This document shows positions 4,280 to 20,581 of a stretch of DNA of 64,000 nucleotides, piece after piece (the stretch's first letter is position 1; every line of letters starts with the position of its first letter). Under the pieces are notes generated by a model, which worked only from the letters and a program-made list of their open reading frames with translations, was not told the DNA's origin and made no database searches. This DNA comes from an uncultured Bacilli bacterium. GTDB lineage: Bacteria; Bacillota_I; Bacilli_A; RF39; UBA660. A program made the position numbers and the translations under genes. The stretch covers positions 12,006-76,005 of the forward strand of contig CAKONI010000002.1 in assembly GCA_934097105.1 (NCBI GenBank), in the 5' to 3' direction.

Positions 4280-4393
4280 TATTTCCCTACTTCCTTTTGC
4301 ATAGTAAATTTTACATAGCAAATTACTTGTATTTTCATTATAGCACCTTTTTTTTAAAATTTGAATATAATAAATTATAAAGGGAGGAATATA

Positions 4394-5377
4394 ATGAAAA
4401 AAATAATTATCTTTAGTACTTGTCTAGTAATAATTTTGTGTTTAACATTCTTATTTTTATGGGCAAATAATGATGATAATAGCAATCTTGAGAAAGTTAA
4501 GGTTGCAGAAGTTACGCATAGTGTGTTTTATGCACCACAATATGTAGCACTTGAAAAAGGCTATTTTGAGGAAGAAGGACTTGATGTTGAACTTACTTTA
4601 ACTGCTGGTGCTGATAATGTTATGGCTGCAGTTTTATCTGGAGATGCCGATATTGGTCTTTCTGGTAGTGAGGCTACTATATACGTTTATAATAAGGGTG
4701 AAAAGGATTATATTAAGACTTTTGCTCAACTTACTCAAAAAGATGGTTCATTTTTAATTTCGAGAGAAAAGGTTAAAGATTTTAAAATCGATGATTTAAA
4801 AGGTAAATATGTTATTGGAGGAAGACAAGGTGGTATGCCGGAAATGACTCTTGAGTATGTTCTTAAGAGTAATGGAATTGATCCTAAAAAAGATCTTACT
4901 ATTGATACTAGTATTGAATTTGCTTCAATGGCTGGGGCTTTTATTGGAGGTACTGGTGATTATGTTGCGCTATTTGAACCTTTGGCTACAAAATTAGTTA
5001 ATGAAGGATATGGTTATAAAGCAAGTTTACTTGGTACTCTTACTGATAATGTGCCATATACTGCTTATAATGCTAGAATTAGTTATTTAGAAGGAAATTC
5101 TGATACTATTACTAAATTTGATAGAGCTATTCAAAGGGGCCTTGATTTTGTACATGAAAATAGTAGTGATGATATTACTAAGGCTATTATGAATCAATTT
5201 CCAGATACTTCTTATAATGATATTAAAAATGCTGTAGAAAGTTATCTTGAAAATGATACTTGGCCTGTTAATACGACTTTTTCTAAAAAATCTTTTGATC
5301 ATTTACAAGATATTGTAATTGAAGCGGGATTTTTAGATAAAAAAGTAAATTATAGTGATTTAATTTATGAAAGATAA
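4394..5377 (+). CDS. ABC transporter substrate-binding protein (NMT1/THI5-like, NitT/TauT family)
   Basis: N-terminal signal anchor 'MKKIIIFSTCLVIILCL' followed by 'VTHSVFYAPQYVALEKGYFEEEGLDVEL', which is typical of NMT1-type binding proteins. The RBS AGGGAGG precedes ATG 4394. ATPase and permease genes follow. Confidence 0.8.
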   Translation: MKKIIIFSTCLVIILCLTFLFLWANNDDNSNLEKVKVAEVTHSVFYAPQYVALEKGYFEEEGLDVELTLTAGADNVMAAVLSGDADIGLSGSEATIYVYNKGEKDYIKTFAQLTQKDGSFLISREKVKDFKIDDLKGKYVIGGRQGGMPEMTLEYVLKSNGIDPKKDLTIDTSIEFASMAGAFIGGTGDYVALFEPLATKLVNEGYGYKASLLGTLTDNVPYTAYNARISYLEGNSDTITKFDRAIQRGLDFVHENSSDDITKAIMNQFPDTSYNDIKNAVESYLENDTWPVNTTFSKKSFDHLQDIVIEAGFLDKKVNYSDLIYER

Positions 5378-5792
5378 TTTGCTTGAGATAGAGAATTTAA
5401 AGAAAATATATCATACTCCAAAGGGGGAAATACTTGCTCTTGATGATATTTCTTTTACAGTTAAGAATAAGGAGTTTATTTCTTTAGTTGGTCCTTCTGG
5501 ATGTGGAAAGAGTACAATTCTTACTATTTTAGCAGGTATTCTTAGTAAAACCGAAGGTAATATTAATTTTACTATTGAAAATCCTAAGATTGGATATATG
5601 CTTCAGGAAGATTCGCTTTTTCCTTGGAGGACTGTTTTAGATAATGCATGTTTGGGACTTGAGGTTAGAAAAGAACTTAATGATGAATCTTTAGGAAATG
5701 TTGTAAGGCTTTTGAATAAGTATGGACTTGGAGATTTTATAAATAATTATCCTGATAGTTTAAGTGGTGGCTTAAAGCAAAGGGTTGCTTGA
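5367..5792 (+). pseudogene. ABC transporter ATP-binding protein, 5' fragment (interrupted by mobile element)
   Basis: Walker A 'GPSGCGKST' and a Q-loop are present. The ORF ends at 'LSGGLKQRVA' plus TGA, inside the ABC signature motif, with no Walker B. Confidence 0.85.
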
Positions 5793-5810
5793 ATGTGTTG
5801 TAGACACTTT
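5778..5810. other. attL-like junction of the inserted element
   Basis: Core CAAAGGGTTGCTT (5778-5790) is followed 11 nt later by AGACACTTT (5802-5810). That 9-mer is the perfect inverse of AAAGTGTCT at the other end of the element. Confidence 0.65.
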
Positions 5811-5840
5811 AAAAATTAAAATTAAAAAAAGGATATCTTT

Positions 5841-6575
5841 CTATCCTATTTTTATTAAGGTAAGTACTGCGGTTGTGTAGTCATTAAATGTAAGGGTTGT
5901 TTCTGCGTCTGCTCTTACGTTTAGGTTTATGACGTCGTCTTTTGATAGTTCTGCAATTACTGTGTTGCTTACACTATTTAAAGTATTTGGTTCCCATTTT
6001 GCTCTTAGGTTGGTTCCTCCGATTAAAATATCGTTATTTCTTGCAGTTATGGTTAAAGATGCGCTTACGTTTGGAGTTCCACTTAGGTAATATGATATTT
6101 GATAGAACCCCTCTTCTTTTATTTTTACGGAGTTTTCGGTTGTGTAGTCTGTATTATAGTATTTTCCATCTTCATTTAAGGGAACAATTGTATCAGCCAT
6201 TCTTGATAGTTGTAAAGGTACATTTTGATTTGAGTATCGCATGGCGTAGGCGATTGTTTGGGCTGGTTCTCCTTTATCTCCTTTTGGACCTGGTTCTCCT
6301 TTGTCTCCTTTTTCACCTTTGGGTATTTTAAAGTCTAGTACTGCGTCTATATTAGTTCCAGAGTTTAGAACTTCGGCGTTTTGATCTGGTGCTACTGTTT
6401 CTATTTTCCCTATATTAATAGTTGCTGGGCCTTGCTCTCCTCTTTCTCCTTGGTCACCTTTTTCGCCTTTTGGACCTGGTACATAACGATATTTTATATT
6501 TCTATTTGCTTCTTCTATTCTTCTTATGACATCTTTACGATTTCCATTACAAGAGCAATCTTTTTTATTATTCAT
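5841..6575 (-). CDS. collagen-like triple-helix repeat protein with BclA/C1q-like or tail-fibre-like C-terminal domain
   Basis: There are two Gly-X-Y runs, 'GPKGEKGDQGERGEQGP' and 'GEKGDKGEPGPKGDKGEP', split by the linker 'ATINIGKIETVAPDQNAEVLNSGTNIDAVLDFKIPK'. A ~135-aa beta-rich C-terminal domain follows. The hairpin AGGATA-N6-TATCCT plus a T-run overlaps the stop codon. Confidence 0.75.
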   Translation of the reverse strand: MNNKKDCSCNGNRKDVIRRIEEANRNIKYRYVPGPKGEKGDQGERGEQGPATINIGKIETVAPDQNAEVLNSGTNIDAVLDFKIPKGEKGDKGEPGPKGDKGEPAQTIAYAMRYSNQNVPLQLSRMADTIVPLNEDGKYYNTDYTTENSVKIKEEGFYQISYYLSGTPNVSASLTITARNNDILIGGTNLRAKWEPNTLNSVSNTVIAELSKDDVINLNVRADAETTLTFNDYTTAVLTLIKIG

Positions 6576-6683
6576 GCACTTCTCCTTTCATTTAATTTTA
6601 TGTAAAGTATAGTAAAAATAGAAATGTTTATAATGTATTAGTTTTTTTTATTTTTTTTAATATATTTTAATGGAGGGATTTTT

Positions 6684-6791
6684 ATGGGCACTAAATATAA
6701 GGTTTATGATTTTGAGGATTGTTGTGATTTTGATCTTTTTATAAATAAGGGAATTTTAAATATTATTTTTATTATGGAGAATTTTATTTAG
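6684..6791 (+). CDS. possible 35-aa ORF directly upstream of the recombinase gene
   Basis: GGAGGG sits 6 nt before the ATG. The ORF ends 6 nt before the recombinase start. It has no recognisable motif and may not be real. Confidence 0.25.
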   Translation: MGTKYKVYDFEDCCDFDLFINKGILNIIFIMENFI

Positions 6792-6797
6792 TTTTTT

Positions 6798-8390
6798 ATG
6801 GAAAGTGAAAAGTATTTGCGTGTTGGTATTTATTTGAGGCTTTCTAATGAGGATAAAGATAAGGATAAGTGTAATAAGGATATTAGTGAGTCTATTAAAA
6901 ACCAAAGGAATCTTTTACTTGATTATATTGATAAAAACCCTTCTTTTGTTTTGTTTGATGAGTATTGTGATGAGGATTTATCTGGTGCGGGGAGTTTTAG
7001 ACCGGAGTTTGAGAGGTTAATTAGGGACTGTGAGCATGGAATGATTGATGTTGTTCTTTGTAAGAGTCAGTCTAGGTTTTCTAGGGATATGGAAGTTGTT
7101 GAAAGATATATTAATAATAAGTTTAAGGAGTGGAATATAAGGTTTATTGGGGTTAGTGATTCTGCTGATACGGATAATTTTGGTAATAAGAAGTCTAGAC
7201 AAATTAATGGTCTTGTTAATGAGTGGTATTTGGAGGATGTTTCTTTAAATATAAGGAGTGCTTTTAATTCTAAGATGAGACAAGGTGAATTTATCTCGCC
7301 TTTCGCACCTTTTGGATATGAGATTTGTAGTTATGATAATAATAGACTTGTTGTTGATAAGGATGCTAGTTTAGTGGTTAAGGAAATATATAATTTATAT
7401 TTATCTGGGTTTGGATTTTCTGCGATTGCTAGGCATTTGAATGAAAAAGGTACTCCCTCCCCTTCTTTTCATAAATATAAACGCGGGATTAAGCTAAATG
7501 TTGTTAGCAATAGATCTAGGGAGGATATTAAGTGGAATGGTGCTTTTATTAAAGGGATTTTAACTAATGAGGTTTATATTGGAAATTTAGTTCAGGGTAA
7601 AAGGACTACGGTTAGTTATAAGAATCATAAGATTATAAATAAGTCTCGTGATAAATGGATTAGATATGATAATACTCATGAGGCTATTATTGATAAGGAT
7701 GTGTTTTTTAAAGTTCAAGATCTTATAAAAAAAAGAACTAGAGTTTATAAGAAAAGTAATGTTTGTCATGTTTTTTCTGGAAGGGTTTATTGCAAAGTTT
7801 GTAGGGGTAAGATGAGAAAAAAAAATTCTTCTAGGCATGAGTATTTGGTTTGTGTGAATAGTCAGAAAGGGCTTTGTGAAAATAAGCAGTCTATTAGATA
7901 TGATGATCTTAAAGGATTGATTTTGAATGAGATTAATAAAAGAATTGATATAAGTTTTGATAAGGATTTTTTAAAGGATGAGATTTGTAAAATGGTGAGT
8001 AAAAGTAATAAGATTAGTGTTTTGGAAAAGGAAAAAGATGATATTTTAAAAAAGATTAGTACTTTTAAGAATCGTTTTAGATCTCTTTATGATGATAAAG
8101 TAAGTGGTATTATTGATGATGAGTATTTTAAGGAACTTTTTAAATTTTATAAAGATGAGGAGACAGGCTTTTTTCGTAGGTGCTTATCTATTGATGAGGA
8201 AATTAGTTTACTTAAAAATATTTCTTATGATGATATTATTTTTAAGTATAGGAAGTTTAATGCTTTAAATATTACTATAGTAGATGAATTTATTGATAAA
8301 ATTTTTATTGGTTTTTTTGATAGGAAAAATAATACTAGAGATGTTGTTATTAAATGGAATTTTGGAAATTATAAAAAGAAAAGAAGTTAG
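6798..8390 (+). CDS. large serine recombinase (resolvase/invertase catalytic domain + recombinase domain + zinc ribbon + coiled coil)
   Basis: 'VGIYLRLSNEDKD' carries the catalytic Ser and 'KSQSRFSRD' is present. The recombinase-domain block 'FGYE...IARHLNEKG' is followed by a Cys cluster, 'CKVCRGKM...CVNSQKGLC'. At 530 aa the length fits serine integrases. Confidence 0.9.
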   Translation: MESEKYLRVGIYLRLSNEDKDKDKCNKDISESIKNQRNLLLDYIDKNPSFVLFDEYCDEDLSGAGSFRPEFERLIRDCEHGMIDVVLCKSQSRFSRDMEVVERYINNKFKEWNIRFIGVSDSADTDNFGNKKSRQINGLVNEWYLEDVSLNIRSAFNSKMRQGEFISPFAPFGYEICSYDNNRLVVDKDASLVVKEIYNLYLSGFGFSAIARHLNEKGTPSPSFHKYKRGIKLNVVSNRSREDIKWNGAFIKGILTNEVYIGNLVQGKRTTVSYKNHKIINKSRDKWIRYDNTHEAIIDKDVFFKVQDLIKKRTRVYKKSNVCHVFSGRVYCKVCRGKMRKKNSSRHEYLVCVNSQKGLCENKQSIRYDDLKGLILNEINKRIDISFDKDFLKDEICKMVSKSNKISVLEKEKDDILKKISTFKNRFRSLYDDKVSGIIDDEYFKELFKFYKDEETGFFRRCLSIDEEISLLKNISYDDIIFKYRKFNALNITIVDEFIDKIFIGFFDRKNNTRDVVIKWNFGNYKKKRS

Positions 8391-9583
8391 TTTTGTTTGG
8401 CTAATTTCTTTTCTTTCTTTTGTTTTTGTTTTTCATATTGTTTGGCGTCGTCTACTTGTTTTAGTCCTAAATTTATGAAATATATTATTACTAACCATGC
8501 TAGGATTGTCATAGCGATTTGTGTCATGTTATATGGTAAGTTTATTGGCATATCCCATATTCCGTGGAGTACTACTGGTATTAGACATATAAGTATAAAT
8601 CTTTTGTCGTTTAGATGCTTTTTATCTAATTTTTCGAATCCTTTTACATACATAAGGGCAGCGCCTTCGATGGCAGCCCATGCGACGTGGCCACCGGGTG
8701 CTAGGAAGCCTCTTAGTTTTATAACGCTAAGCATTGTTTCTAGACCACCACTTAATCCATATTTTAGGATGTATCCTGCTGTTTCAAAGGCTGCGAAGCC
8801 TGCTCCTACGGCCGCTCCTATTAAGAGTCCATCTAAGATATAATCACTTTTTTTGCTTTTAAATAGAAAGACTGCTACGATGGTTGTTTTGGCTGCTTCT
8901 TCGATTAGTCCTACCATCATTGCGCCGAAATATGTTGTTATGTCTGTGTTAAAGTTTAATGAGAAGAATAGTATTGCGACGATTAATGATAAGGCTCCTC
9001 CTAGGATAAAGTATTTCATTACTTTATAAAATGGTATGTTTCTAAAAAGATTTATTTCGAAGAAGAATATTAAAACTGTTACAGGAATAGCGAAGGCTGC
9101 TAACATTATCATGGCTGGTAAGAAGTTTTCGTTTCCGTAGTTTATGAATCCTATTCTTGTTGGAATATATGCTATTAGGAAAAATATTAGTATTTTAAAG
9201 TAGACCCATGCACTGGCATTTTTTGGATCTATTTCACTTACTTTTGGAGTTGTTTTTTCTCCTCCGCAGATGAATATTTCGTCTAGTTCTTCGTCTGTGT
9301 GTTTTTTGAATGTGTTTTTAAATAGGCTTTTAAATGTTACATAATTTTCTGATTTTGCGCCGGTTATTTTATCTAGGTTTTCTGTAATTATGTTTTTTGA
9401 TTTAACTTCTTTAGTCTCTTTTTCAAGAGGAAATCCGCATTCTGGGCAGTATGTTTCTCCTCCTTTTAAAGTTTTTCCGCATTCTGGACAGGTGTTTTTT
9501 TGAAGGCTTATTCCGCAGTGGGGACATACTTTTGCGCTTGATGATACTTCTTTTTTACATTCTTTACATTTTACGAGTGCCAT
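8387..9583 (-). CDS. double zinc-ribbon / PrsW-family intramembrane protease fusion protein
   Basis: The N-terminus has 'CKECKK..CPHCG' and 'CPECGK..CPECG'. A multi-TM core follows with PrsW-type blocks 'GLIEEAAKT' (EExxK), 'FAAFETAGY' and 'GGHVAWAAIEG'. Confidence 0.7.
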   Translation of the reverse strand: MALVKCKECKKEVSSSAKVCPHCGISLQKNTCPECGKTLKGGETYCPECGFPLEKETKEVKSKNIITENLDKITGAKSENYVTFKSLFKNTFKKHTDEELDEIFICGGEKTTPKVSEIDPKNASAWVYFKILIFFLIAYIPTRIGFINYGNENFLPAMIMLAAFAIPVTVLIFFFEINLFRNIPFYKVMKYFILGGALSLIVAILFFSLNFNTDITTYFGAMMVGLIEEAAKTTIVAVFLFKSKKSDYILDGLLIGAAVGAGFAAFETAGYILKYGLSGGLETMLSVIKLRGFLAPGGHVAWAAIEGAALMYVKGFEKLDKKHLNDKRFILICLIPVVLHGIWDMPINLPYNMTQIAMTILAWLVIIYFINLGLKQVDDAKQYEKQKQKKEKKLAKQN

Positions 9584-9584
9584 A

Positions 9585-10331
9585 TTAATTTCCTCCTGCT
9601 GATAGGGTTTTTATTACTGTTTCTGCTAAAGTATTTACTACTTCACTATTTGTATTTTCTTCTTTGGTTCCTATCATATATACTACATTATTTATAACAA
9701 CTGCATATCTATTGTCTACGATTAGGTGTCCGTTTGATGTGTAATTGTATGCAAGGCCATATACGTATTTATCTCCGATATTTCCGCCTACTAAGTCGAT
9801 TGTTATTTTAAGATCGGGATATTCTTTTCTCATGTAGTCAGTGAAACTGTTTAAAAATTGTACTCCGTTGTTGAATTTTTCATATTTTCCTACGATTACG
9901 TATGGTATTGTGGCATTGTTTTCTTTTAAATTTTGAGTTACATAAATAAATCCATCTTTGTCGGTTGCTACTTGGTAACCACTTGGGTATTCAAATGATA
10001 ATCCTAGATTGCTATCTTTATAAGTTGTGTAGCCATTATTTTGTGATGGTTCGGTTGTTCCTGGGTTTGACGTAGGATTATCTTGATTGTTGTTGTTATT
10101 GTTACTAGTTCTATTTTGAGTAAATAGCAAAAATAATATGAATAGTACTGCAAATATGAATAGATATCTATACATATCGTTTTTATCTTTCTTTTTTGTT
10201 TTTGGTTTAGTTTCTACCCTTTTTGTTTCTTTTTTGCTTTCATTATTGTTTAGTTCATATCCACATTTTGGACAGGTTTCTGCTTTATCGCTTATTTTAT
10301 TATTACATTCTGGACATTTTATAAGTGCCAT
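9585..10331 (-). CDS. zinc-ribbon, single-pass membrane protein with extracytoplasmic domain
   Basis: The N-terminus 'MALIKCPECNNKISDKAETCPKCG' is paralogous to that of the next gene ('MALVKCKECKK...CPHCG'). It has one TM helix, a poly-Asn linker and a ~150-aa C-terminal domain. Its stop is 1 nt from the PrsW-fusion start. Confidence 0.6.
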   Translation of the reverse strand: MALIKCPECNNKISDKAETCPKCGYELNNNESKKETKRVETKPKTKKKDKNDMYRYLFIFAVLFILFLLFTQNRTSNNNNNNQDNPTSNPGTTEPSQNNGYTTYKDSNLGLSFEYPSGYQVATDKDGFIYVTQNLKENNATIPYVIVGKYEKFNNGVQFLNSFTDYMRKEYPDLKITIDLVGGNIGDKYVYGLAYNYTSNGHLIVDNRYAVVINNVVYMIGTKEENTNSEVVNTLAETVIKTLSAGGN

Positions 10332-10705
10332 GTGAACTCCTCCTTTTCTTTAAACTAATTATAGATTAAAATGTTTTGTTTAACAATTGACTTGCCAAAG
10401 TATGCATTGTTTTTGCTGGTAAATATATCAATATTAGTATTTTTATTTGTATTATTTTTATACATTTATTTTTATTTTATATATGTAAGGAACCTAATAC
10501 TTGATATAAAGAGGAGAATAAGTTTTTTGTGATGAATAATTAATATATCTACATTCATAGGAGGTTGATAGTATTTTGAAAATAAGATTTTAGGAAAAAG
10601 TTAATGGATGGAAGCATTAGTTACAAGTTAGGTAGAATTATAGAGTATATATTTATTTTTTTATTCTAACTTAAATCTATTATACTAAGTAAAGGAGAAA
10701 AAATT

Positions 10706-11656
10706 ATGAAAAATGAAATTGTATTATTTGAAAATCAAGATGTAAAACTTGAGGTTAATATGAAAGATGAGACTGTATGGTTATCATTAGAGCAAATGGC
10801 TAGATTATTTGGTAGAGATAATTCTGTTATTTCTAGACATATTAAAAATGCATTAAGAGAATAGTTATATGATTCAACTGTTGCAAATTTTGCAAAAGTT
10901 CAAAATGAGGGCAACAGAAATGTAACACGTAATATTGATTATTATAACTTAGATATGATTATTAGTGTTGGTTATCGTGTTAAAAGTCAAAATGGTGTTA
11001 TTTTTAGAAAATGGGCAAATAAAATATTAAAAGACTTTTTGCTAAAAGGATATACTGTTAATCAAAAGAGATTAGAATATCTTGAAAAAACTATAAAATT
11101 AATTGATATTGCTGGAAGAATAGATACTGAGTTAAAGGGTGATGAAGCAAAAGAAATAATTAAAGTAATAAATACTTATTCAAATGCTTTAAATTTGCTT
11201 GATGATTATGATCATAAAAGAATTGTTAAACCGAATGGAACTAAAAATAATAAACAAGTTACTTATGAGGATTGTATGAATGTTGTTAATAAACTTAAAT
11301 TTAATAGTGATAGTGATTTATTTGCACTTGAGCGAAATAAAGGTTTAGAAGCAATAATAGGTACAATATATTAATCTTTTGATGGTAGTGATTTATACCC
11401 TACTGTGCAAGAAAAAGATCCTAATTTTCTTTATTTAATTGCTAAAAATCATACTTTTATTGATGGTAATAAAAGAATCGCTGCTACGCTATTTATTTAC
11501 TTTTTGGAATTTTATAATATTTTATATAATGAAAATGGACAAGTTATTGATAATAATACTCTTGTTGCGATTACGCTTCTTATTGCACAATCTAATCCTA
11601 AAGAAAAGGAAATACTAATTGATTTAGTAATGAACTTTTTAAAAAATGATGATTGA
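10706..11656 (+). pseudogene. RhuM-family / Fic-DOC domain protein gene with two in-frame stop codons
   Basis: All of 10706-11656 stays in one reading frame. The RhuM-like N-terminus has 'YYNLDMIISVGYRVKS' and the Fic-type motif is 'HTFIDGNKRIAA'. The frame is broken only by TAG (10862-10864) and TAA (11372-11374). Confidence 0.75.
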
Positions 11657-11676
11657 TTAAAAAAAATTAGAAATAA

Positions 11677-11708
11677 AAAGTGTCTTTATTATGCTCAAAG
11701 AGTTGCTT
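11677..11708. other. attR-like junction of the inserted element
   Basis: AAAGTGTCT (11677-11685) is followed 10 nt later by the core CAAAGAGTTGCTT (11696-11708). The host ATPase frame resumes here. Confidence 0.65.
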
Positions 11709-12040
11709 TAATTAGGACACTTGCTCTTAATCCTGATATACTTTTGTTGGATGAACCTTTTTCTGCTCTTGATTATCAAACTAGACTTTCTTTGTCTGAT
11801 GATTTGAAGAAGATAATTAATGATGAGGGGAAAACTGCTATTATGGTTACTCATGATATTGCGGAGGCTATTAGTATGTCTGATAAAGTTATTGTTATTA
11901 CGAATAGACCTGGTAAAATTAAAGAAATTATTGATATAAATTTAGAGAGTGTTAAGACTCCTACTGAGAATAGAAAAGATAAATATTTTACTAAATATTA
12001 TGAAAAGATATGGAAAGAGTTAGATAATCATGTACAGTGA
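11696..12040 (+). pseudogene. ABC transporter ATP-binding protein, 3' fragment
   Basis: From 11696 the frame reads 'QRVALIRTLALNPDILLLDEPFSALD...MVTHD' (end of signature, Walker B, H-loop). It overlaps the permease start as in an intact operon. Confidence 0.85.
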
Positions 12041-12812
12041 TGAGCATAAAATATATTTAAAAAAGGAAAAAAGAAATAAAAGGACTATACTTTTTTTTAA
12101 AATATTTATATTAATTTTCTTTTTAGGACTTTGGGAGGTTACTGCAAGATATGAGATAATTAATCCGTTTTTAACTTCTTATCCATCTAAAGTTGTTGTT
12201 ACTGTTTTAAATTTGTTTAAGGAAAATAATTTAATTTCTCATATATGGGTTACTGTTTATGAAACTTTGATTAGTTTTTCTCTGGCTAGTTTAATTGGGG
12301 TTTTAATTGCGAGTATTTTGCAAAGCAGTAAGACTATATCTAAAATACTTGATCCTTATTTAACTGTACTTAATTCTCTTCCTAAGATATCTCTTGGTCC
12401 ACTTATTATAATTTGGATTGGGGCGAATGTTAATTCTATTATATTTATGGCTTTACTTATTTCAGTTTTTACTACCATTATAAATATGTATAATGCTTTT
12501 CAATCTACTGATAACTCCAAAATAGTGCTTATGAAATCTTTTGGGGCTAGTAGAATGCAGATTTTTACTAAACTTATTTTGAGGGGTAATGTTCCTAGTT
12601 TAGTAAATGCTCTTAAGATTAATATAAGTTTATCTTTAATAGGTGTGATTATGGGAGAACTTCTTGTATCTAAACAGGGTCTTGGATATTTAATTACTTA
12701 TGGTTCTCAAATATTTAATTTAAATCTTGTTATTACTTCGATTTTTATTCTAGGAATAATTTCTTATCTTTTATATATTGCTATCGATTTTTTGGAAAGA
12801 AAAATAAAATAA
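12030..12812 (+). CDS. ABC transporter permease (NitT/TauT family)
   Basis: Six-TM profile with a BPD-transporter-type loop, 'SKILDPYLTVLNSLPKISLGPLIIIWIG'. Its start overlaps the ATPase 3' fragment. Confidence 0.85.
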   Translation: MYSDEHKIYLKKEKRNKRTILFFKIFILIFFLGLWEVTARYEIINPFLTSYPSKVVVTVLNLFKENNLISHIWVTVYETLISFSLASLIGVLIASILQSSKTISKILDPYLTVLNSLPKISLGPLIIIWIGANVNSIIFMALLISVFTTIINMYNAFQSTDNSKIVLMKSFGASRMQIFTKLILRGNVPSLVNALKINISLSLIGVIMGELLVSKQGLGYLITYGSQIFNLNLVITSIFILGIISYLLYIAIDFLERKIK

Positions 12813-14187: not shown

Positions 14188-16791
14188 TTATGAAAGGGTA
14201 AATTTCTTGGCGAAAGAAGGGTTGGATTCATAAATGGTTTCTGAGGCTCCGTAAAGTCTTTCACCCGTATTAGAAAGTGTGCCTGTTTTTTTAGGTATGC
14301 TTATAGTCCATGATAATGCTTCTGTATTTTCTCCGGCACCTTTGAACATATTATACATATTTGTTACACTTGAAGTATCCCAGCGTGATAAATCTAAATT
14401 AAATGTTTCGGCTTCATAGGAACCTGCATAGGCAAACATTTGAACCATACTTGTTACTTTTGAGGTGTCCCAACCATCTAAAATTAAGTTAAAGTCGGTG
14501 GAGTAAGCACCAGCAAAAGCGAACATACCACCCATGTTTGTTACATTTGATGTATCCCAGCGTGACAAATCTAAGTTAAAAGTTGTTATATTTTTACCCA
14601 CGTAACTAAACATTCCAGACATATCTGTTACCTTTGATGTATTCCAGTTTGATATATTTCCTAAAGTCCAAGTTTTGGAATTTTGTCCTATGCTATCAAA
14701 CATATGCATCATATTTGTTACATTTGAGGTATCCCATGAAGATAAATCACCAACATTCCAAGTGCTTGCATTTGCTCCTGCATTGTAGAACATATTACTT
14801 ATGTCTGTTACTTTTGATGTATTTAAATTAGACAAGTTTAATTTAAATGATAAAACATTTTTTCCTGCATTGTAGAACATGTAACTCATGTCTGTTACAT
14901 TTGATGTATCTAAGTTAGTGAAATCACCTTTTTCCATATTAGTGAAGCCATCGAACCAATATGCTGTAGAAGTAGGTTTTATTGTTCTTCCTATTTCTAC
15001 GCTTTTTACATTTATGCGTTCATTTTTCCATATTACTGGACTACTATTAAATGTATATGGATTATCATTATCCATTGCAACATATTTATTAGTGACTGCT
15101 CCGTGTTTTGATATGTTGGCACTTCTATCTTTTAGTTGTTCATTTATTATTAATGTTCCATCATTATATAGTGTTGTCATTTCATTTACTAATTTTACTG
15201 TACATGTTGTATTACTTGTTACATTGTTTAATGTTAAAATTTTGTTATTATAAGTTCCTGTTTGATTGTTTGTACAATTAACATAAGCACTTGTGTAGTC
15301 TTCTCCGATTGGTGTTATATTGAAAGCTGTGTTTGTATTATAATCAATTGTCTTAGAAGCAGTTTCAACTGTACCATTTTGTACTACTACACTTACTGTA
15401 ACTGTTTCTTTTACAGTTATTTGTTGTGTTATTTCTATATTGCCTGTACATGTTATTTTTACACTTGTTACATCTTTTGTTAGTGGTGTATTTGGTGAGA
15501 ATGTACATGTACCATTTTCTATTTCTTCTTTTATATTTAATGTATTTTTACTGTTATCATTATATGTTGCTTCTACTTCCATACCAGTTGGATCAAATGT
15601 TTCTCCTTCTTGGTATATTGTTTTTGTCGCTGGTGTTTTTGCTGTTATTCCTGTTATGTATTTATTTACTACAGTTATGTTTTGATCTACACTTTTTCCG
15701 CTACAAGTAATTGTTACTTTTGTATCATTCTTTGAAAGTTCTCCATTTGGATTAATTGTACATTTATTATTACTTACTTCTTCACTTACGTTTTTATCTA
15801 CTGTAGTTCCATCACTATATTTATAAGTGATAACCATTCCATCACTATTAAACCTTTCTCCTTCGATGTATTCTTTCTTTGTTGCCTCAGTTTTTATACT
15901 TATATTTTCTAGCGTTACTTCTTTTGCATTTACTGTAACACTAACACTAGTTTGATCATTTCCACATTTAACTATTACTTTATCAGTTCCTACTGTTAAT
16001 TGATCTGGAACAAATTTACAAATATCTTTAGTGACGTCTAATTCTTCTGTTAGTTCATTATTGTATTTTACTTTTATCTTCATTCCTGTTGGATCGAAGT
16101 ATTCTCCGTCTTCATATATACCTTTATTAGGTTTGCTTGTTATTTCTGTTATTTCTTCGATTGTTTTTTCGCTTACTTTAATAGATTGGGTAGCAAATAC
16201 ACCTTCACAGGTAATTCTTATTTGTGTTGTATCTTTTTCTATTTTGCTTGGTGAGAATGTACAACCTTTTCCATCTTGGATTTCTGCTGAATCTCCTGTA
16301 TTATATGTTACTTTTAACTTCATTCCTGTTGGGTCAAAAGTTTCTCCTTCGATGTATTCTGTTTTTGTTGGCATTGTGGTTATATCTAGATTTGTTGGTA
16401 TTTTGTTTGTTGGTGCTTCTGCTTTGATAGGAGCAGCCCATGACCATGAACTGTTATGGTAACCACCATTTTCATCGAACCAATAAAGTGCTACGGCAAA
16501 CTTGTATGTTTCTCCTCTATTTAAGCCGTCATAAACTTTATATCCTGCTCCTCCTTTAGGTCTTAGAATCATTGCTTGGTTGTCTTTATAAGCCCAATTT
16601 GCATTTAAGACTATAATACCACATTTTTCGTATTTACAACTGGCTAAATCATATTCTACTTTTATTTGTGTACTTAGCATGTTTGTTGCTTTTGTTATTT
16701 TTGGTAATTCATCTTCTGCATGGACATTTAGCATGAAACCAAATCCTAAAAACATTATAAATAATGCTAAAATCAAATTTTTCTTTTTCAT
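14188..16791 (-). CDS. secreted modular surface protein: N-terminal beta domain, 4 bacterial Ig-like (Big_3-type) repeats, conserved connector, 7 DUF285/BspA-type repeats
   Basis: Signal peptide 'MKKKNLILALFIMFLGFGFMLNVHA'. Four repeats of the type 'TKTEYIEGETFDPTGMKLKVTY'. The C-terminal units carry 'WDTSNVTNM..MF'. Confidence 0.8.
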   Translation of the reverse strand: MKKKNLILALFIMFLGFGFMLNVHAEDELPKITKATNMLSTQIKVEYDLASCKYEKCGIIVLNANWAYKDNQAMILRPKGGAGYKVYDGLNRGETYKFAVALYWFDENGGYHNSSWSWAAPIKAEAPTNKIPTNLDITTMPTKTEYIEGETFDPTGMKLKVTYNTGDSAEIQDGKGCTFSPSKIEKDTTQIRITCEGVFATQSIKVSEKTIEEITEITSKPNKGIYEDGEYFDPTGMKIKVKYNNELTEELDVTKDICKFVPDQLTVGTDKVIVKCGNDQTSVSVTVNAKEVTLENISIKTEATKKEYIEGERFNSDGMVITYKYSDGTTVDKNVSEEVSNNKCTINPNGELSKNDTKVTITCSGKSVDQNITVVNKYITGITAKTPATKTIYQEGETFDPTGMEVEATYNDNSKNTLNIKEEIENGTCTFSPNTPLTKDVTSVKITCTGNIEITQQITVKETVTVSVVVQNGTVETASKTIDYNTNTAFNITPIGEDYTSAYVNCTNNQTGTYNNKILTLNNVTSNTTCTVKLVNEMTTLYNDGTLIINEQLKDRSANISKHGAVTNKYVAMDNDNPYTFNSSPVIWKNERINVKSVEIGRTIKPTSTAYWFDGFTNMEKGDFTNLDTSNVTDMSYMFYNAGKNVLSFKLNLSNLNTSKVTDISNMFYNAGANASTWNVGDLSSWDTSNVTNMMHMFDSIGQNSKTWTLGNISNWNTSKVTDMSGMFSYVGKNITTFNLDLSRWDTSNVTNMGGMFAFAGAYSTDFNLILDGWDTSKVTSMVQMFAYAGSYEAETFNLDLSRWDTSSVTNMYNMFKGAGENTEALSWTISIPKKTGTLSNTGERLYGASETIYESNPSFAKKFTLS

Positions 16792-16944: not shown

Positions 16945-18375
16945 ATGCTAGATAAACAAATTAAAATGATTAAGGATCATTATAAAAATTCTCCGGATAT
17001 TGTTTTTAGAAAAATTGATATTAAAAGTAAGAAAATTGTATTTGTTTTTAATGATACTTTATGTAAAGGTGATAATATAAATGATTTTATTCTTAAGCCT
17101 CTTACTAATTTTGATAAGAAAATTACTAGAGACAATATTTTGAATCATTTGGAAAGTCAAATACCTGAGAGTAATATTGTTAGTATAAAAGATAAAGATG
17201 ATCTTTTAATAAAAATTGGTTCTGGATTTACTGTTATTTTGTTTGAAAAGGAAAAGCCTTTTGCTGTTGAGACTAGAGATGTTTTGTCTAGAAATATTTC
17301 TGAGCCTTTGACTGAGCAGACTATAAGTGGTCCAAAAGATGCTTTTACTGAGAATTATAAAACTAATATTGGACTTATTAGGAAAAGAATTAAAACTAGT
17401 AATTTGGTTTTAGAAGAGTTTGATGTTGGTAAGGAGACTGTTACTAAAGTTGGGATTTTCTACATGGATAATATTATTGAAAAGGATCTTTTGGAGGAAA
17501 TTAAAAGCAGAATTAAGAGTATTAATATTGATGGTATTTTTGATAGTACTTATATTAGAGAAATTATTGAGGATAATCATAGTGTTTTTCCGACTATTGA
17601 AACTAGTGAGAGGCCTGATACTACGGCGATGGCTCTTCTTGATGGAAAGGTTTGTATTTCTGTAGATGGTTCGCCTTATTTTCTTATTATTCCTACTTTT
17701 TTTACTGATTTGTTTCATGCTAGTGAGGATAATTATCAGAATTATAAGAATGTTACTTTTACTAGATGTATTAGATTTCTTGCTTTTTTAATTGCGATTG
17801 TTCTTCCGGCTTTTTACATTGCTATTATTACATATAATCATGAAACTATTCCTGCTACTTTGCTTATTAATTTTGCTGCTCAGCGGGAGGGAGTTCCTTT
17901 TCCACCTATTATTGAGGCTCTTGGTCTTACTTTAGTTTTTGAAATTCTTCGTGAAAGTGATATTAGGATGCCTCATCTATCGGGTACTGCTATTTCTATA
18001 CTTGGTGCAATTGTTCTTGGTGATGCAGCGGTTTCAGCGGGTATTGCTTCTCCGATTATGGTTATTGTTATTGCTCTTTCTGCTATTTCTTCTCTTATGT
18101 TTTCTCATATTGGGATGGTAAATGCGATAAGAGTTTGGAGAATTATATTTATGCTTTTTGCCACTTTAGCGGGCATTATTGGTGTTTTTTTAGCAGGATT
18201 TCTTCTTACTATTAATTTATCTTCTTTAAGTTCTATTAAAAAGCCTTATTTGTACCCTCTTATACCGCTTAATAAGAAGTTTTTGTTTAGTAGTTTAGGA
18301 AAGGATTCAATAAAAAAAGATAATAAGCGTATGCCTATTCTTACTGATAAAAATTATACAAGGAGCAAATTATGA
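16945..18375 (+). CDS. spore germination protein, GerA/GerKA (A subunit) family
   Basis: 476 aa. The soluble N-terminal domain has 'ISGPKDAFTENYKTNIGLIRKRI'. The C-terminal TM bundle has 'REGVPFPPIIEAL' and 'RESDIRMP'. Confidence 0.9.
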   Translation: MLDKQIKMIKDHYKNSPDIVFRKIDIKSKKIVFVFNDTLCKGDNINDFILKPLTNFDKKITRDNILNHLESQIPESNIVSIKDKDDLLIKIGSGFTVILFEKEKPFAVETRDVLSRNISEPLTEQTISGPKDAFTENYKTNIGLIRKRIKTSNLVLEEFDVGKETVTKVGIFYMDNIIEKDLLEEIKSRIKSINIDGIFDSTYIREIIEDNHSVFPTIETSERPDTTAMALLDGKVCISVDGSPYFLIIPTFFTDLFHASEDNYQNYKNVTFTRCIRFLAFLIAIVLPAFYIAIITYNHETIPATLLINFAAQREGVPFPPIIEALGLTLVFEILRESDIRMPHLSGTAISILGAIVLGDAAVSAGIASPIMVIVIALSAISSLMFSHIGMVNAIRVWRIIFMLFATLAGIIGVFLAGFLLTINLSSLSSIKKPYLYPLIPLNKKFLFSSLGKDSIKKDNKRMPILTDKNYTRSKL

Positions 18376-19493
18376 AAAAATTATTTTTATTTATTTTGTT
18401 AATACCTTTTATGACTGGATGTAGTTATATGGAACTTGAGGATCTTGCTATTGCTTCGGCGATTGGAATTGATTATGAGGATAATAGTTTTGTTCTTACT
18501 GCGCAAATTATGAATGTTACGACTGGTGAAACGGGCACGATGGAAGAAAATGCTCTTATTTATGAGGGAAGTGGTAAGACAGTTTCTGAGGCTGTTAGGG
18601 ATTTTTCTGTTAAGTATCCTAAGAATATTTATTTTGGGCATTTGGAAGTTCTTGTTCTTAGTAAGGATATTATGGAAAATCATTTGGATGAAATTCTTGA
18701 TTACTTTTTTAAGTCTCCGGAAACTAGGACTTCTGGATATATTTTAGTAAATGATAAGGATTCTGCTAGAAATACTTTAAATCCTAAGAATGAAAAAAAG
18801 GATTCTTTTCCGGCAGAAGATATTAAAAGTATTTTGATGGATTCTACTAAGAGGACTGGTACTGTTAAGGATATTACTTTGGAGGAGTTTGCTGTTGATT
18901 ATTTGAAGAAAGGTTACTCCCCTATTTTTCCTATTATAAATATTAGAGATAAAAAAGGTATGACTACTAGCAAGATTGAACTTTATAATATGGCTGTTTT
19001 AAATGATGATAGAAAACTTGTAAGTCTTGATAAGAAAAGTTCTATTGCTTATAATACTTTGAAAGAAAATTATACTGATATATCTATAATATCTACATAT
19101 AAAGGGCATTCTTTGGGTCCTATTATTTATCATCCTAAGTCTAAAGTGAAACTTAAACTTTCTAATAACGAAATTAATGTTAATATTAAAATAAGGGCTG
19201 AGTCTATTATTTCTAATGCTAATGGTATTGATCAAACTAAGGATAAGATGCATAGGATTCTTGAGGAAAATATTGAGAAATCTCTTGGTTCTTACGTGGA
19301 TTCTTTAATTAATTTTTGTAAGGAAAATAATGCTGATGTTTTGGGGCTTAGGAATATGATTTATAAAAATTATAATAGTGATTATAAGAATTATAAAGAT
19401 AAGAATATATATGAAATGGCTAATTTTAAGAAGGATATTAAGATAAGAATATATAGGTATGGAAATACTAATCAAGGAGGTAAAAGTAAATGA
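18372..19493 (+). CDS. Ger(x)C family spore germination lipoprotein
   Basis: Lipobox 'FMTGC' followed by 'LEDLAIASAIGIDYE'. ATGA overlap with the A-subunit stop. Confidence 0.85.
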   Translation: MKKLFLFILLIPFMTGCSYMELEDLAIASAIGIDYEDNSFVLTAQIMNVTTGETGTMEENALIYEGSGKTVSEAVRDFSVKYPKNIYFGHLEVLVLSKDIMENHLDEILDYFFKSPETRTSGYILVNDKDSARNTLNPKNEKKDSFPAEDIKSILMDSTKRTGTVKDITLEEFAVDYLKKGYSPIFPIINIRDKKGMTTSKIELYNMAVLNDDRKLVSLDKKSSIAYNTLKENYTDISIISTYKGHSLGPIIYHPKSKVKLKLSNNEINVNIKIRAESIISNANGIDQTKDKMHRILEENIEKSLGSYVDSLINFCKENNADVLGLRNMIYKNYNSDYKNYKDKNIYEMANFKKDIKIRIYRYGNTNQGGKSK

Positions 19494-20581
19494 ATGGGAA
19501 GATAAGTTCTGGGGAAATGATGGTTTTATCTATTTGTTTTATTACCGCTTTGTTTCCTGGTATTACTAATAATTTGATTTTATCTATTTCTAAGAATTCT
19601 TCTTTATTATCTATTGGGTTAGCAATTCTTGTAGGATTAATTCCTATTTTTATGATAGTTTTTATTAGTAAAAGATTGGATACTAGTTTATTTGATTTTT
19701 TGAGGGAAAAGTTTGGTTTTTTTGGTAATTTTCTTAATGTATTTTTGATAGTTATGGCCTTTATTACTTTGTCAATTAGTTCTTGGCTTTTTGTAGATTT
19801 TTTGATTAGTCAATTTTTAACTAGAAATTCATATTATTCTGTGTCTATATTTATTTCTTTAATTGTTAGTTATTGTGTTTGTAAGGATTTTGAGACTTTA
19901 TCTAGGACTGCTTTTGTTTTATTTTTAATTTCTGTCATTACTATTCTTATTTCTTGGATATGTCTTTCGGGCTATGTTGAACTTGATAATTTTAAACCTT
20001 TTATAGATGTTCCTTATAAAAATATTATGAATAGTGGTTTTATTATTTTAACTTTTTTAAGTGCTCCGCTTATATATATGATTGATTTAAGGAATAAGGT
20101 TCAAAACAAAAAAGGTTTTGAGAGGAAACTTGTACTTAGTTCTTTGATATCGGCATTTTTACTTTTTGGATTTATATTTTTAATAATCGGAATATACGGA
20201 ATTGACTTATCATCAATGTTTATATATCCAATATACTCTCTATTTAAAAAAATCGAAATATTAGGGTTTATTGAAAGAATTGAGAATATTTCTACTTTAG
20301 TACTTATAATACCATTTTTTAATATGTTTTGTTATTTGATTTATTATATGAAAGAAAATATTTTGAAGTTTTTTGAAAATAAAGAGAAAAAGATAAATAA
20401 AAAGAAAGAAAGGTTTTTGATATGCTTTCTTTCAGTAGTGATTCCTGTTAATGCAATATATTTTTTTACTAACTATAATTTGAATACTTTAATAGATATA
20501 TGTCCTTATATTTTTAGTACTTTATTTATAGTTATTATAATAATTTTTATACGGTGCTTGTTTATTAAAAAGAGTAAGTAG
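19490..20581 (+). CDS. spore germination protein, GerAB/permease-like (B subunit) family
   Basis: 363 aa, about 10 TM segments. ATGA overlap with the C subunit. Third gene of the receptor operon. Confidence 0.8.
   Translation: MNGKISSGEMMVLSICFITALFPGITNNLILSISKNSSLLSIGLAILVGLIPIFMIVFISKRLDTSLFDFLREKFGFFGNFLNVFLIVMAFITLSISSWLFVDFLISQFLTRNSYYSVSIFISLIVSYCVCKDFETLSRTAFVLFLISVITILISWICLSGYVELDNFKPFIDVPYKNIMNSGFIILTFLSAPLIYMIDLRNKVQNKKGFERKLVLSSLISAFLLFGFIFLIIGIYGIDLSSMFIYPIYSLFKKIEILGFIERIENISTLVLIIPFFNMFCYLIYYMKENILKFFENKEKKINKKKERFLICFLSVVIPVNAIYFFTNYNLNTLIDICPYIFSTLFIVIIIIFIRCLFIKKSK

Follow-up and report, generated by a model that had tools for sequence, protein, structure and literature searches.

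Why is the ATPase gene of a nutrient importer cut in two by a segment of about 5.9 kb that encodes its own serine recombinase? The question is raised by a stretch of 64,000 nt from an uncultured Bacilli bacterium (lineage RF39, UBA660; GenBank assembly GCA_934097105.1, contig CAKONI010000002.1, positions 12,006 to 76,005; the whole stretch is called the window hereafter), in which the two parts of an ABC importer ATPase lie on either side of an integrated element. The original prediction, made from the sequence of the window, had left a choice between a reversible switch and a stable insertion. Neither fits the comparative data, which show one copy of a site-specific mobile family with variable cargo, found nearly always at this codon. 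We put the probability at roughly 85% that the element is an integrated, probably still excisable, relaxase-less member of a family of site-specific large serine recombinase (LSR) elements. From their gene content, the family is predicted to comprise small integrative elements of uncultured gut Bacilli, many of them mobilizable. The parts of the locus that carry this reading are the following (window coordinates):

4361..5377, + strand: gene for the substrate-binding protein (SBP) of the interrupted ABC importer, NMT1/THI5-like, SsuA family (Pfam NMT1, 2.6e-25)
5367..5792, + strand: N-terminal fragment of the ABC ATPase, 141 aa (Pfam ABC_tran, profile positions 1-118 of 137)
5767..5807, + strand: attL, with B arm GTGGC (5767-5771) plus 12 nt, GT (5784-5785), and P' arm of 17 nt plus GACAC (5803-5807)
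5784..11701, no strand: integrated element, 5,918 bp from crossover to crossover, GC 29.4%, equal to the flanks
6798..8390, + strand: LSR, 530 aa, with Resolvase, Recombinase, Zn_ribbon_recom and weak DUF4368 domains
11680..11720, + strand: attR, with P arm GTGTC (11680-11684) plus 17 nt, GT (11702-11703), and B' arm of 12 nt plus GACAC (11716-11720)
11696..12040, + strand: C-terminal fragment of the ABC ATPase (Walker B, D-loop, H-loop), whose frame resumes as QRVALIRTLALNPDILLLDEPFSALD
12030..12812, + strand: permease gene of the same importer, intact in the window (Pfam BPD_transp_1)

Pfam matches place the binding protein, both ATPase fragments and the permease in one importer operon, in the order SBP-ATPase-permease; the NCBIfam SsuA_fam match of the SBP lies under its cutoff. 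The ATPase frame ends as LSGGLKQRVA followed by TGA and resumes about 5.9 kb further on, just as first described. The N-terminal fragment retains Walker A, the Q-loop and the LSGG signature, and its last codons and stop derive from the element side. The C-terminal fragment has no in-frame start codon ahead of LLLDEPF. Because the first fragment lacks Walker B and the second lacks a start codon, integration of the element is expected to inactivate the importer. A working split ATPase made of two polypeptides was considered and rejected, as the C-terminal half has no in-frame start before LLLDEPF and the N-terminal half stops within the helix after the signature motif. When the flanks are joined in silico, the result is a 251-aa ATPase, reading K-Q-R-V-A-L-I-R across the junction, in keeping with the intact protein of about 250 aa that had been foreseen. 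More than 100 intact proteins of ~250 aa (69-80% identity) align colinearly with ~100% of the rejoined protein, and uninterrupted loci were found in metagenome-assembled genomes (MAGs) of uncultured Bacilli, some labelled 'Tenericutes' (77% identity in L003, 69% in L004), with the DNA at the site reading ...GGNGGNATGAARCAAAGAGTTGCNTTAAT... in the intact locus. The nearest NCBIfam models are the SaoA, nitrate, taurine and sulfonate-type ATPases, all under their cutoffs. The earlier view of the target as a nutrient importer and not a sporulation gene thus stands, for a NitT/TauT-type ATPase within an SBP-ATPase-permease operon.

An assembly artefact can be ruled out because the junctions recur identically in independent assemblies. 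A contig from ENA (L001) is 100% identical to the window over 13.6 kb, and an independent contig (L056) has the same structure at 94-97.5% nucleotide identity. The ENA gene calls on L001 at 8570-9022 and 14608-15252, equivalent to window 5367-5819 and 11405-12049, read through TGA as in genetic code 4 and so report a 150-aa N-terminal fragment and a 214-aa Fic-ATPase 'fusion'. Genetic code 4 was rejected, since table 11 leaves long ORFs intact, among them that of the 530-aa LSR and others of 607, 867 and 1,736 aa, and these read-through calls are therefore artefacts.

How was the element inserted? Both junctions carry a direct repeat, CAAAGGGTTGCTT (5778-5790) and CAAAGAGTTGCTT (11696-11708), matching at 12 of 13 positions, and perfect 9-bp inverted repeats, AGACACTTT (5802-5810) and AAAGTGTCT (11677-11685), lie 11 and 10 nt inside them; on reading the window, both pairs were as the original prediction had given them. 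Joining the element ends gives an attP of the form GTGTC-N17-GT-N17-GACAC, symmetric about GT. The symmetry proposed for this site was correct, and its proposed length of ~52 bp is replaced by a functional core of 46 bp. Joining the flanks gives an attB of the form GTGGC-N12-GT-N12-GACAC, in which GTGGC spans the two glycine codons of LSGG and GACAC those for Arg-Thr in LIRT. In attB the outer motif is 5 bp nearer the centre than in attP, so that each half-site is 5 bp shorter. The same arrangement is known from serine integrases, where the position of the motif for the zinc-ribbon domain distinguishes attP from attB. The half-site motifs are not a chance pattern, for they recur in other genomes, where the alignment of 23 distinct attL with 25 distinct attR sequences gave the consensus of each arm: GTGTCTt.A.ta.atTCaaaGA followed by GT for the P arm, GT followed by tg..tGaAt.t..t.tAgACAC for the P' arm, GtGG.ATga.acAaaGa followed by GT for the B arm, and GT followed by tGCttTaATtAG.ACac for the B' arm. 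The att sites of the window fit this consensus and both are identical in L056. No other attB-like site was found in the window, where the other ABC ATPase signature regions differ in DNA.

The crossover had been placed within GTTGCTT from the single G/A mismatch between the repeats. It does lie there, in the first two bases, but the mismatch alone was not a sufficient basis, because the crossover could also have lain to its left. In the window the mismatch (5783 and 11701) excludes GG and GA; in L047 a G/C mismatch excludes the AG to the left; and in L050 attL and attR share only AGAGT, with the real empty site in L053 confirming the join. GT (5784-5785, 11702-11703) is the only dinucleotide common to the window, L047 and the L050/L053 pair, and is therefore assigned as the crossover; it is also the geometric centre of attP. 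The palindrome reported in attB is real and extends to 9+4+9 bp (TTAAAGCAA-AGGG-TTGCTTTAA). As the centre of the crossover it was rejected: its midpoint lies 2 bp left of GT, and the mismatches in the window and in L047 lie in its central dinucleotide. We propose that the LSR would integrate the element by a 2-bp GT exchange between the attP of the element and a chromosomal attB located in the DNA for the LSGG-x-x-QRV-ALIRT signature region of one NitT/TauT-type importer ATPase. The gene is cut precisely, after QRV, and excision as a circle would restore the 251-aa ATPase. For the window element the predicted junctions are ...GGTGGCTTAAAGCAAAGG-GT-TGCTTTAATTAGGACAC... for attB and ...GTGTCTTTATTATGCTCAAAGA-GT-TGCTTGAATGTGTTGTAGACAC... 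for attP. In four of the ten intact attB sites (the ATPase genes of L008, L009, L011 and L014) the protein reads QRI instead of QRV, with AT at the core. Since AT replaces the GT needed at the crossover, these alleles would be expected to resist integration and may represent a resistant host allele.

The 530-aa recombinase reported inside the element is present, with three recombinase domains by Pfam (Resolvase 2.4e-16, Recombinase 6.2e-24, Zn_ribbon_recom 3.4e-9). Its DUF4368 score of 21.3 bits falls under the Pfam cutoff of 25, and most of its homologues have a precomputed PF14287 hit that is marked weak in the context tables. Ser16 is the predicted catalytic residue; R14 and S16 are invariant across 37 homologues, and the window LSR keeps every residue that is invariant in the family. 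It is assigned to PHROG 95 (integrase), and its nearest annotated recombinase is TndX, at ~30% identity over 94-97% of the length. NCBIfam returned only sub-threshold similarity to XisF and CcrB. Identity to phage records was at most 33%, to unannotated human-faecal 'phage' contigs, and the annotated phage and plasmid collections contained no close relative (at most 37% identity). At E ≤ 1e-20 a homology search retrieved more than 3,600 homologues. Of these, the best 119 that are not identical have the same domains, with 58-64% identity and lengths of 510-553 aa; the LSRs of the family are 55-63% identical to that of the window.

Is this codon a habitual target or a single event? We compared ~130 related loci, approached from either side of the junction. 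Starting from the ATPase, three MAG contigs (50-61% amino acid identity) are interrupted at the same codon: L016 ends ...LSGGMKQRVG and then stops, L018 ends ...LSGGMRQRVV and then stops, and L017 starts at residue 138. ATPase orthologues truncated at this codon occur in L016, L018, L044, L047 and L050. Starting from the recombinase, all three LSR homologues with fetched context sit between the same N- and C-terminal fragments of the SBP-ATPase-permease operon. A metagenome scan with the LSR alignment found 476 relatives, of which 80 loci were kept. Among the 33 informative loci, defined by a complete LSR and at least 4 kb downstream, the ATPase C-terminal fragment follows the LSR in 26, usually with the permease after it; L059 and L060 carry both attL and attR, which brings the number at the same codon to 28 of 33. 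A relaxase-bearing member of 10.1 kb (L073) occupies a secondary site (2502; 12585-12608) in a cupin-domain gene, between ...HWHGAKKS and SWFSHI..., and off-target integration at pseudo-attB sites therefore does occur.

Family elements range from 4.0 to 11.9 kb and share a canonical layout: attL, cargo, an optional AAA_25-Mob pair, a small open reading frame (ORF), the LSR, zero to a few kb, and attR. A MobV (Mob_Pre) relaxase adjoins the LSR in 25 of the 80 loci and an AAA_25 protein is present in 18. The cargo varies: siblings carry SocA/Panacea and XRE genes (toxin-antitoxin), a Flg_new surface protein (L047) or, in L044 (718-8161) and likewise in L045 and L046, a complete vanG-type glycopeptide-resistance operon encoding VanR, VanS, VanW, the VanG ligase, VanXY and the membrane and catalytic subunits of VanT. 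In these three loci the VanG ligase, VanT-G, VanW and VanR pass their NCBIfam cutoffs. Such behaviour is ordinary for a mobile element and is not that of a demonstrated genetic switch. A second, shorter serine recombinase of 422-435 aa (Resolvase and Zn_ribbon_recom, no Recombinase hit) was observed in L044 (13104-14411) and L050 (13694-14962), and also in L069, L081, L092, L093 and L119. It lies directly 3' of the permease of the same operon, truncated at about residue 205-210, and the similarity of L050 to L053, the empty locus, ends within the permease (L050:13668 = L053:7358). Because the shorter recombinase follows a truncated permease, two different families of serine-recombinase elements target the same three-gene operon.

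Do empty sites exist? For the host of L050, the rejoined ATPase (247 aa) is present exactly in the protein collection, on 100 contigs; the matching empty loci (L053-L055) have an intact SBP-ATPase-permease operon, and L050 and L053 share 99.3-99.5% identity in their flanks, which overlap only by AGAGT. The exact rejoined allele was also found for the host of L062 (170 contigs, MBD9105569.1) and for that of L081, whose cluster contains 248-aa intact proteins and many 139-aa truncated ones. Of seven sibling host species tested (L047, L050, L056, L062, L081, L098 and L116), three thus have both occupied and empty alleles. Integration is therefore both precise and polymorphic, because for these three siblings conspecific genomes with an empty site encode precisely the ATPase predicted by rejoining. 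The window, L056, L047, L098 and L116 have no recorded empty allele that matches exactly. The expected uninterrupted locus was accordingly found in related genomes (L003 and L004, and L053 for a sibling) but not in the species of the window itself.

Excised forms were sought with an attP pattern over all 135 loci, which returned no canonical circle and only the non-canonical L113, L129 and L134, and with a degenerate attP pattern against IMG/VR, which gave 0 hits. The three non-canonical sites have a central AC on the LSR strand. They come from JGI metagenome contigs (Ga0131853, Ga0123352 and Ga0123353; in L129 the site is at 11730-11775 of a 62.9-kb contig) and their LSRs are 55-58% identical to that of the window. 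Here the recombinase is followed by an unrecombined, canonical-looking attP and then by element sequence of the left-end type; such copies may exist free or on plasmids, or be arranged in tandem or nested.

Turning to the window copy itself, the remaining genes of the element are:

5841..6575, - strand: cargo, collagen-like protein with a BclA C-terminal (C1q-like) domain (Pfam BclA_C, 40.7 bits, cutoff 38, plus collagen repeats)
6684..6791, + strand: small ORF of 35 aa directly 5' of the recombinase gene, conserved in the family as an ORF of 35-41 aa
8387..9583, - strand: cargo, PrsW-family intramembrane protease with an N-terminal double zinc ribbon (Pfam PrsW-protease, 1.3e-28)
9585..10331, - strand: cargo, zinc-ribbon membrane protein with a weak PsbP_2-like domain (Pfam)
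10706..11656, + strand: broken RhuM-Fic/Doc gene in three ORFs, PADLOC PDC-S23-like (Pfam, PADLOC)

The BclA-like gene thus lies at the left end, and 3.3 kb of cargo separates the LSR from attR. Neither Pfam nor the family comparison revealed a Mob_Pre or AAA_25 homologue in the window element. Since a MobV relaxase adjoins the LSR in 25 of 80 loci and none is present here, we regard the family as similar to integrative and mobilizable elements (IMEs) and the window copy as its putative non-mobilizable derivative. The small ORF has no Pfam or PHROG match. Its homologues (L044 9804-9929, L047 9819-9944 and 24 metagenome loci) give the consensus MxYNIIDIVDxxLTDTKLKEIINKKLYKIIELMEFN, from which the window version diverges, and the conserved 35-41-aa product is a candidate directionality factor, accessory protein or regulator. 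With an intact recombinase and two intact att sites, the element should have kept the ability to excise, possibly with no separate recombination directionality factor (RDF), as in the Tn4451/Tn5397 type, or by means of the small ORF 5' of the recombinase.

Two other identities for the element were rejected. A prophage or prophage remnant does not agree with the lack of phage structural, packaging and lysis genes; the integrase is the only genuine PHROG match, and the PHROG 'tail fibre' matches to the BclA-like protein fall mainly in its collagen-repeat region (residues ~30-110; two extend further). An active defence island was discarded as well, the sole PADLOC match being the broken PDC-S23-like gene. 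Its fragments match consecutive segments of the PADLOC profile (82-233, then 229-312; ~320 aa when intact). The BclA-like collagen gene appears to encode a fast-evolving surface protein, with a synonymous divergence (dS) well above that of its neighbours; chromosomal BclA_C genes also lie near this operon in sibling hosts (L053 10536-11633).

Is the element still a working one, or a scar? Were the insertion fixed and immobile, this lineage would have lost the importer for good and would carry only the remains of a decaying element. The lack of mobilization genes and the RhuM-Fic pseudogene agree with such decay, as does the presence of the same insertion in a strain that is ~3-4% divergent (L056), with matching divergence of element and flanks. 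Against L056, dS is 0.107 for the LSR, 0.057 for PrsW and 0.122 for the zinc-ribbon protein, and 0.118 for the SBP, 0.058 for ATPase-N, 0.129 for ATPase-C and 0.055 for the permease. Element and flanks have thus diverged to a similar degree, which is most simply explained by an insertion older than the separation of the two strains. Decay is contradicted by an intact LSR ORF that keeps all invariant residues and has a ratio of non-synonymous to synonymous divergence (dN/dS) of 0.17, and by two att sites that fit the family consensus and are unchanged in L056. It is also contradicted by the importer genes, whose dN/dS is 0.01 for the SBP, 0.09 for ATPase-C, 0.09 for the permease and ~0.1 for the split ATPase as a whole; both ATPase halves, the SBP and the permease are all at or below 0.15, which is not expected of a dead operon. 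The two ATPase fragments have accumulated 13 synonymous and 6 non-synonymous changes, where ~79% non-synonymous would be expected under neutrality (binomial P = 1e-5; P = 0.0025 assuming synonymous changes to be twice as likely per site). By these substitution patterns, the ATPase fragments and their two partner genes remain under purifying selection. Such a pattern is unlike that of a dead operon and would fit either occasional precise excision or continuing recombination with empty-site strains. Overall, permanent loss seems very improbable to us.

Several observations nevertheless weigh against an excisable mobile element. For the species of the window, no empty site or attP circle was found, an absence which also agrees with a fixed insertion; it is weak evidence, because the species has been seen only a few times. 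The exact rejoined protein of the window is likewise absent from the collection, the best intact relative being 80% identical. The window copy has no relaxase or replication gene and one of its cargo genes is a pseudogene, so it may no longer be transferable between cells. Co-divergence of the element with its flanks suggests long residence, and the dN/dS test comprises 19 substitutions between two sequences. Divergence is uneven along the locus. The same RhuM-Fic breaks occur in L056 and this region is 99-100% identical, compared with 94-98% across the rest of the locus, while the BclA-like gene has a dS of 0.43 and differs in repeat length by 172 nt from its counterpart in L056 (5633-6535). 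The unevenness points to recombination, and exchange with empty-site strains could also explain the selection signal. Taken together, the element is probably a resident that can still be excised, neither a dead scar nor a proven host-controlled switch.

Might excision instead be part of the host's development? The window contains a germinant-receptor operon (GerA, 2.6e-151, GerAC and Spore_permease) at 16945-20581, a SpoIID-domain protein is encoded upstream, and genes for a Mur ligase, a D-Ala-D-Ala carboxypeptidase and DUF285 surface proteins are also present. The host is thus a walled and, on account of its germination receptor genes, probably spore-forming member of the Bacilli, even though related MAGs are labelled 'Tenericutes' or 'Mycoplasma'. 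One of the large surface proteins (32874-35543) has DUF285 ('Mycoplasma') and Flg_new repeats by Pfam, and the large protein at 14188-16791 resembles it by eye only.

The germination genes make developmental excision conceivable in this host. A developmental intervening element of the skin, SPbeta or gin type would be excised in the mother cell during sporulation to rebuild the ATPase, and the germ line would keep the element. Besides the very probable spore-forming host, a BclA-like collagen protein among the cargo and the purifying selection on a split gene in two sampled genomes that both carry the element speak for it, and small non-phage intervening elements with an LSR and a small RDF are known, such as gin in gerE (PMC5595907). 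The target, however, is a nutrient importer and not a mother-cell sporulation gene. The siblings are typical mobile elements with relaxase, AAA_25, toxin-antitoxin genes or a vanG operon, and they are present in some and absent from other conspecific strains. No clear sporulation-type promoter motif emerged from the alignment upstream of the LSR module, a scan of low power at 29% GC, and a scan for promoters and terminators was uninformative in this AT-rich DNA. The analogy to skin and SPbeta drawn in the original prediction therefore received no positive support, and we consider a developmental role to have only a slim chance of being correct.

A broader form of regulation is unlikely too, if somewhat less so: a reversible ON/OFF importer switch exploited by the host. 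Here the integrated state would be OFF and precise excision in a subpopulation, or in the sporulating mother cell, would restore the ATPase; the 35-41-aa ORF would be the directionality factor, and the family would be a site-specific offshoot of multi-targeting DUF4368/TndX-like recombinases. If true, this would explain how purifying selection on the split gene and its partners goes together with co-divergence of element and chromosome.

How does the mobile family that we favour compare with known systems? It resembles Tn4451/Tn4453 (TnpX) and Tn5397 (TndX) in being small (about 4-12 kb across the family), in exchanging a 2-bp core and in an LSR built of Resolvase, Recombinase, Zn-ribbon and DUF4368 domains, the last of these weak in the window LSR. 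Tn4451 is integrated by a 2-bp exchange, encodes a MobV relaxase and has a recombinase (TnpX) that needs no RDF (PMC5704250). Just as Tn4451 has TnpZ, members of our family have a MobV (Mob_Pre) relaxase next to the LSR, the window copy being without one. TnpX and TndX choose their targets with little specificity and have a GA core; this family shows high specificity for a single ATPase codon and has GT as its core. DUF4368 was found in 63% of a multi-targeting LSR clade and in 0.73% of site-specific LSRs (Durrant et al., PMC10083194), and a site-specific DUF4368 family is atypical given this rarity.

IMEs with high-specificity serine recombinases are known to integrate inside genes and disrupt them (PMC5704250), and because that review documents such elements, the kind of element is already known. 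The streptococcal examples (rumA, SNF2, Maff2, traG) also use a specific site within a conserved gene, which is disrupted, and are alike by description in their very short direct repeats and variable cargo (PMC5704250, PMC5357655). They differ in target (here the signature region of an ABC ATPase), host lineage and recombinase family. In skin (SpoIVCA, sigK), SPbeta (SprA/SprB, spsM) and gin (GirC/GirX, gerE), as here, an LSR element splits a gene that precise excision rebuilds, and gin is likewise a small, non-phage element, with a likely spore-forming host in our case too (PMC5595907, PMC4191935, PMC5025042). Those three elements interrupt mother-cell sporulation genes and are excised under sigma-factor control, whereas the present target is an importer and the relatives are horizontally mobile and polymorphic; skin, SPbeta and gin are functional analogies only. 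The Listeria comK prophage (A118/phi10403S) is a further case, named 'active lysogeny', of an LSR-integrated element within a coding gene whose reversible excision restores function. It is a full prophage with demonstrated regulated excision, unlike the window element, which has no phage genes and for which no excision product was found.

The single insertion is ordinary, as gene-disrupting site-specific LSR elements are already documented, and the family is the more useful result. Our literature searches turned up no description of it, and it is apparently undescribed. It departs from known systems in three respects: its target, the lineage of its hosts, and the pairing of high site specificity with a DUF4368-type LSR. 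The family is also large, with more than 3,600 LSR homologues and the 476 relatives of one metagenome scan, all from uncultured gut Bacilli. From it come dozens of natural attP/attB pairs in which the core (GT) is defined and the half-sites are offset by 5 bp, material for work on LSR specificity and tools. For the gut resistome it matters that gut commensals carry a vanG-type operon on a small element driven by a recombinase, and the importer operon emerges as a hotspot for two families of serine-recombinase elements. Finally, purifying selection on the split gene across co-diverged copies hints that excision, or exchange with empty-site strains, still matters.

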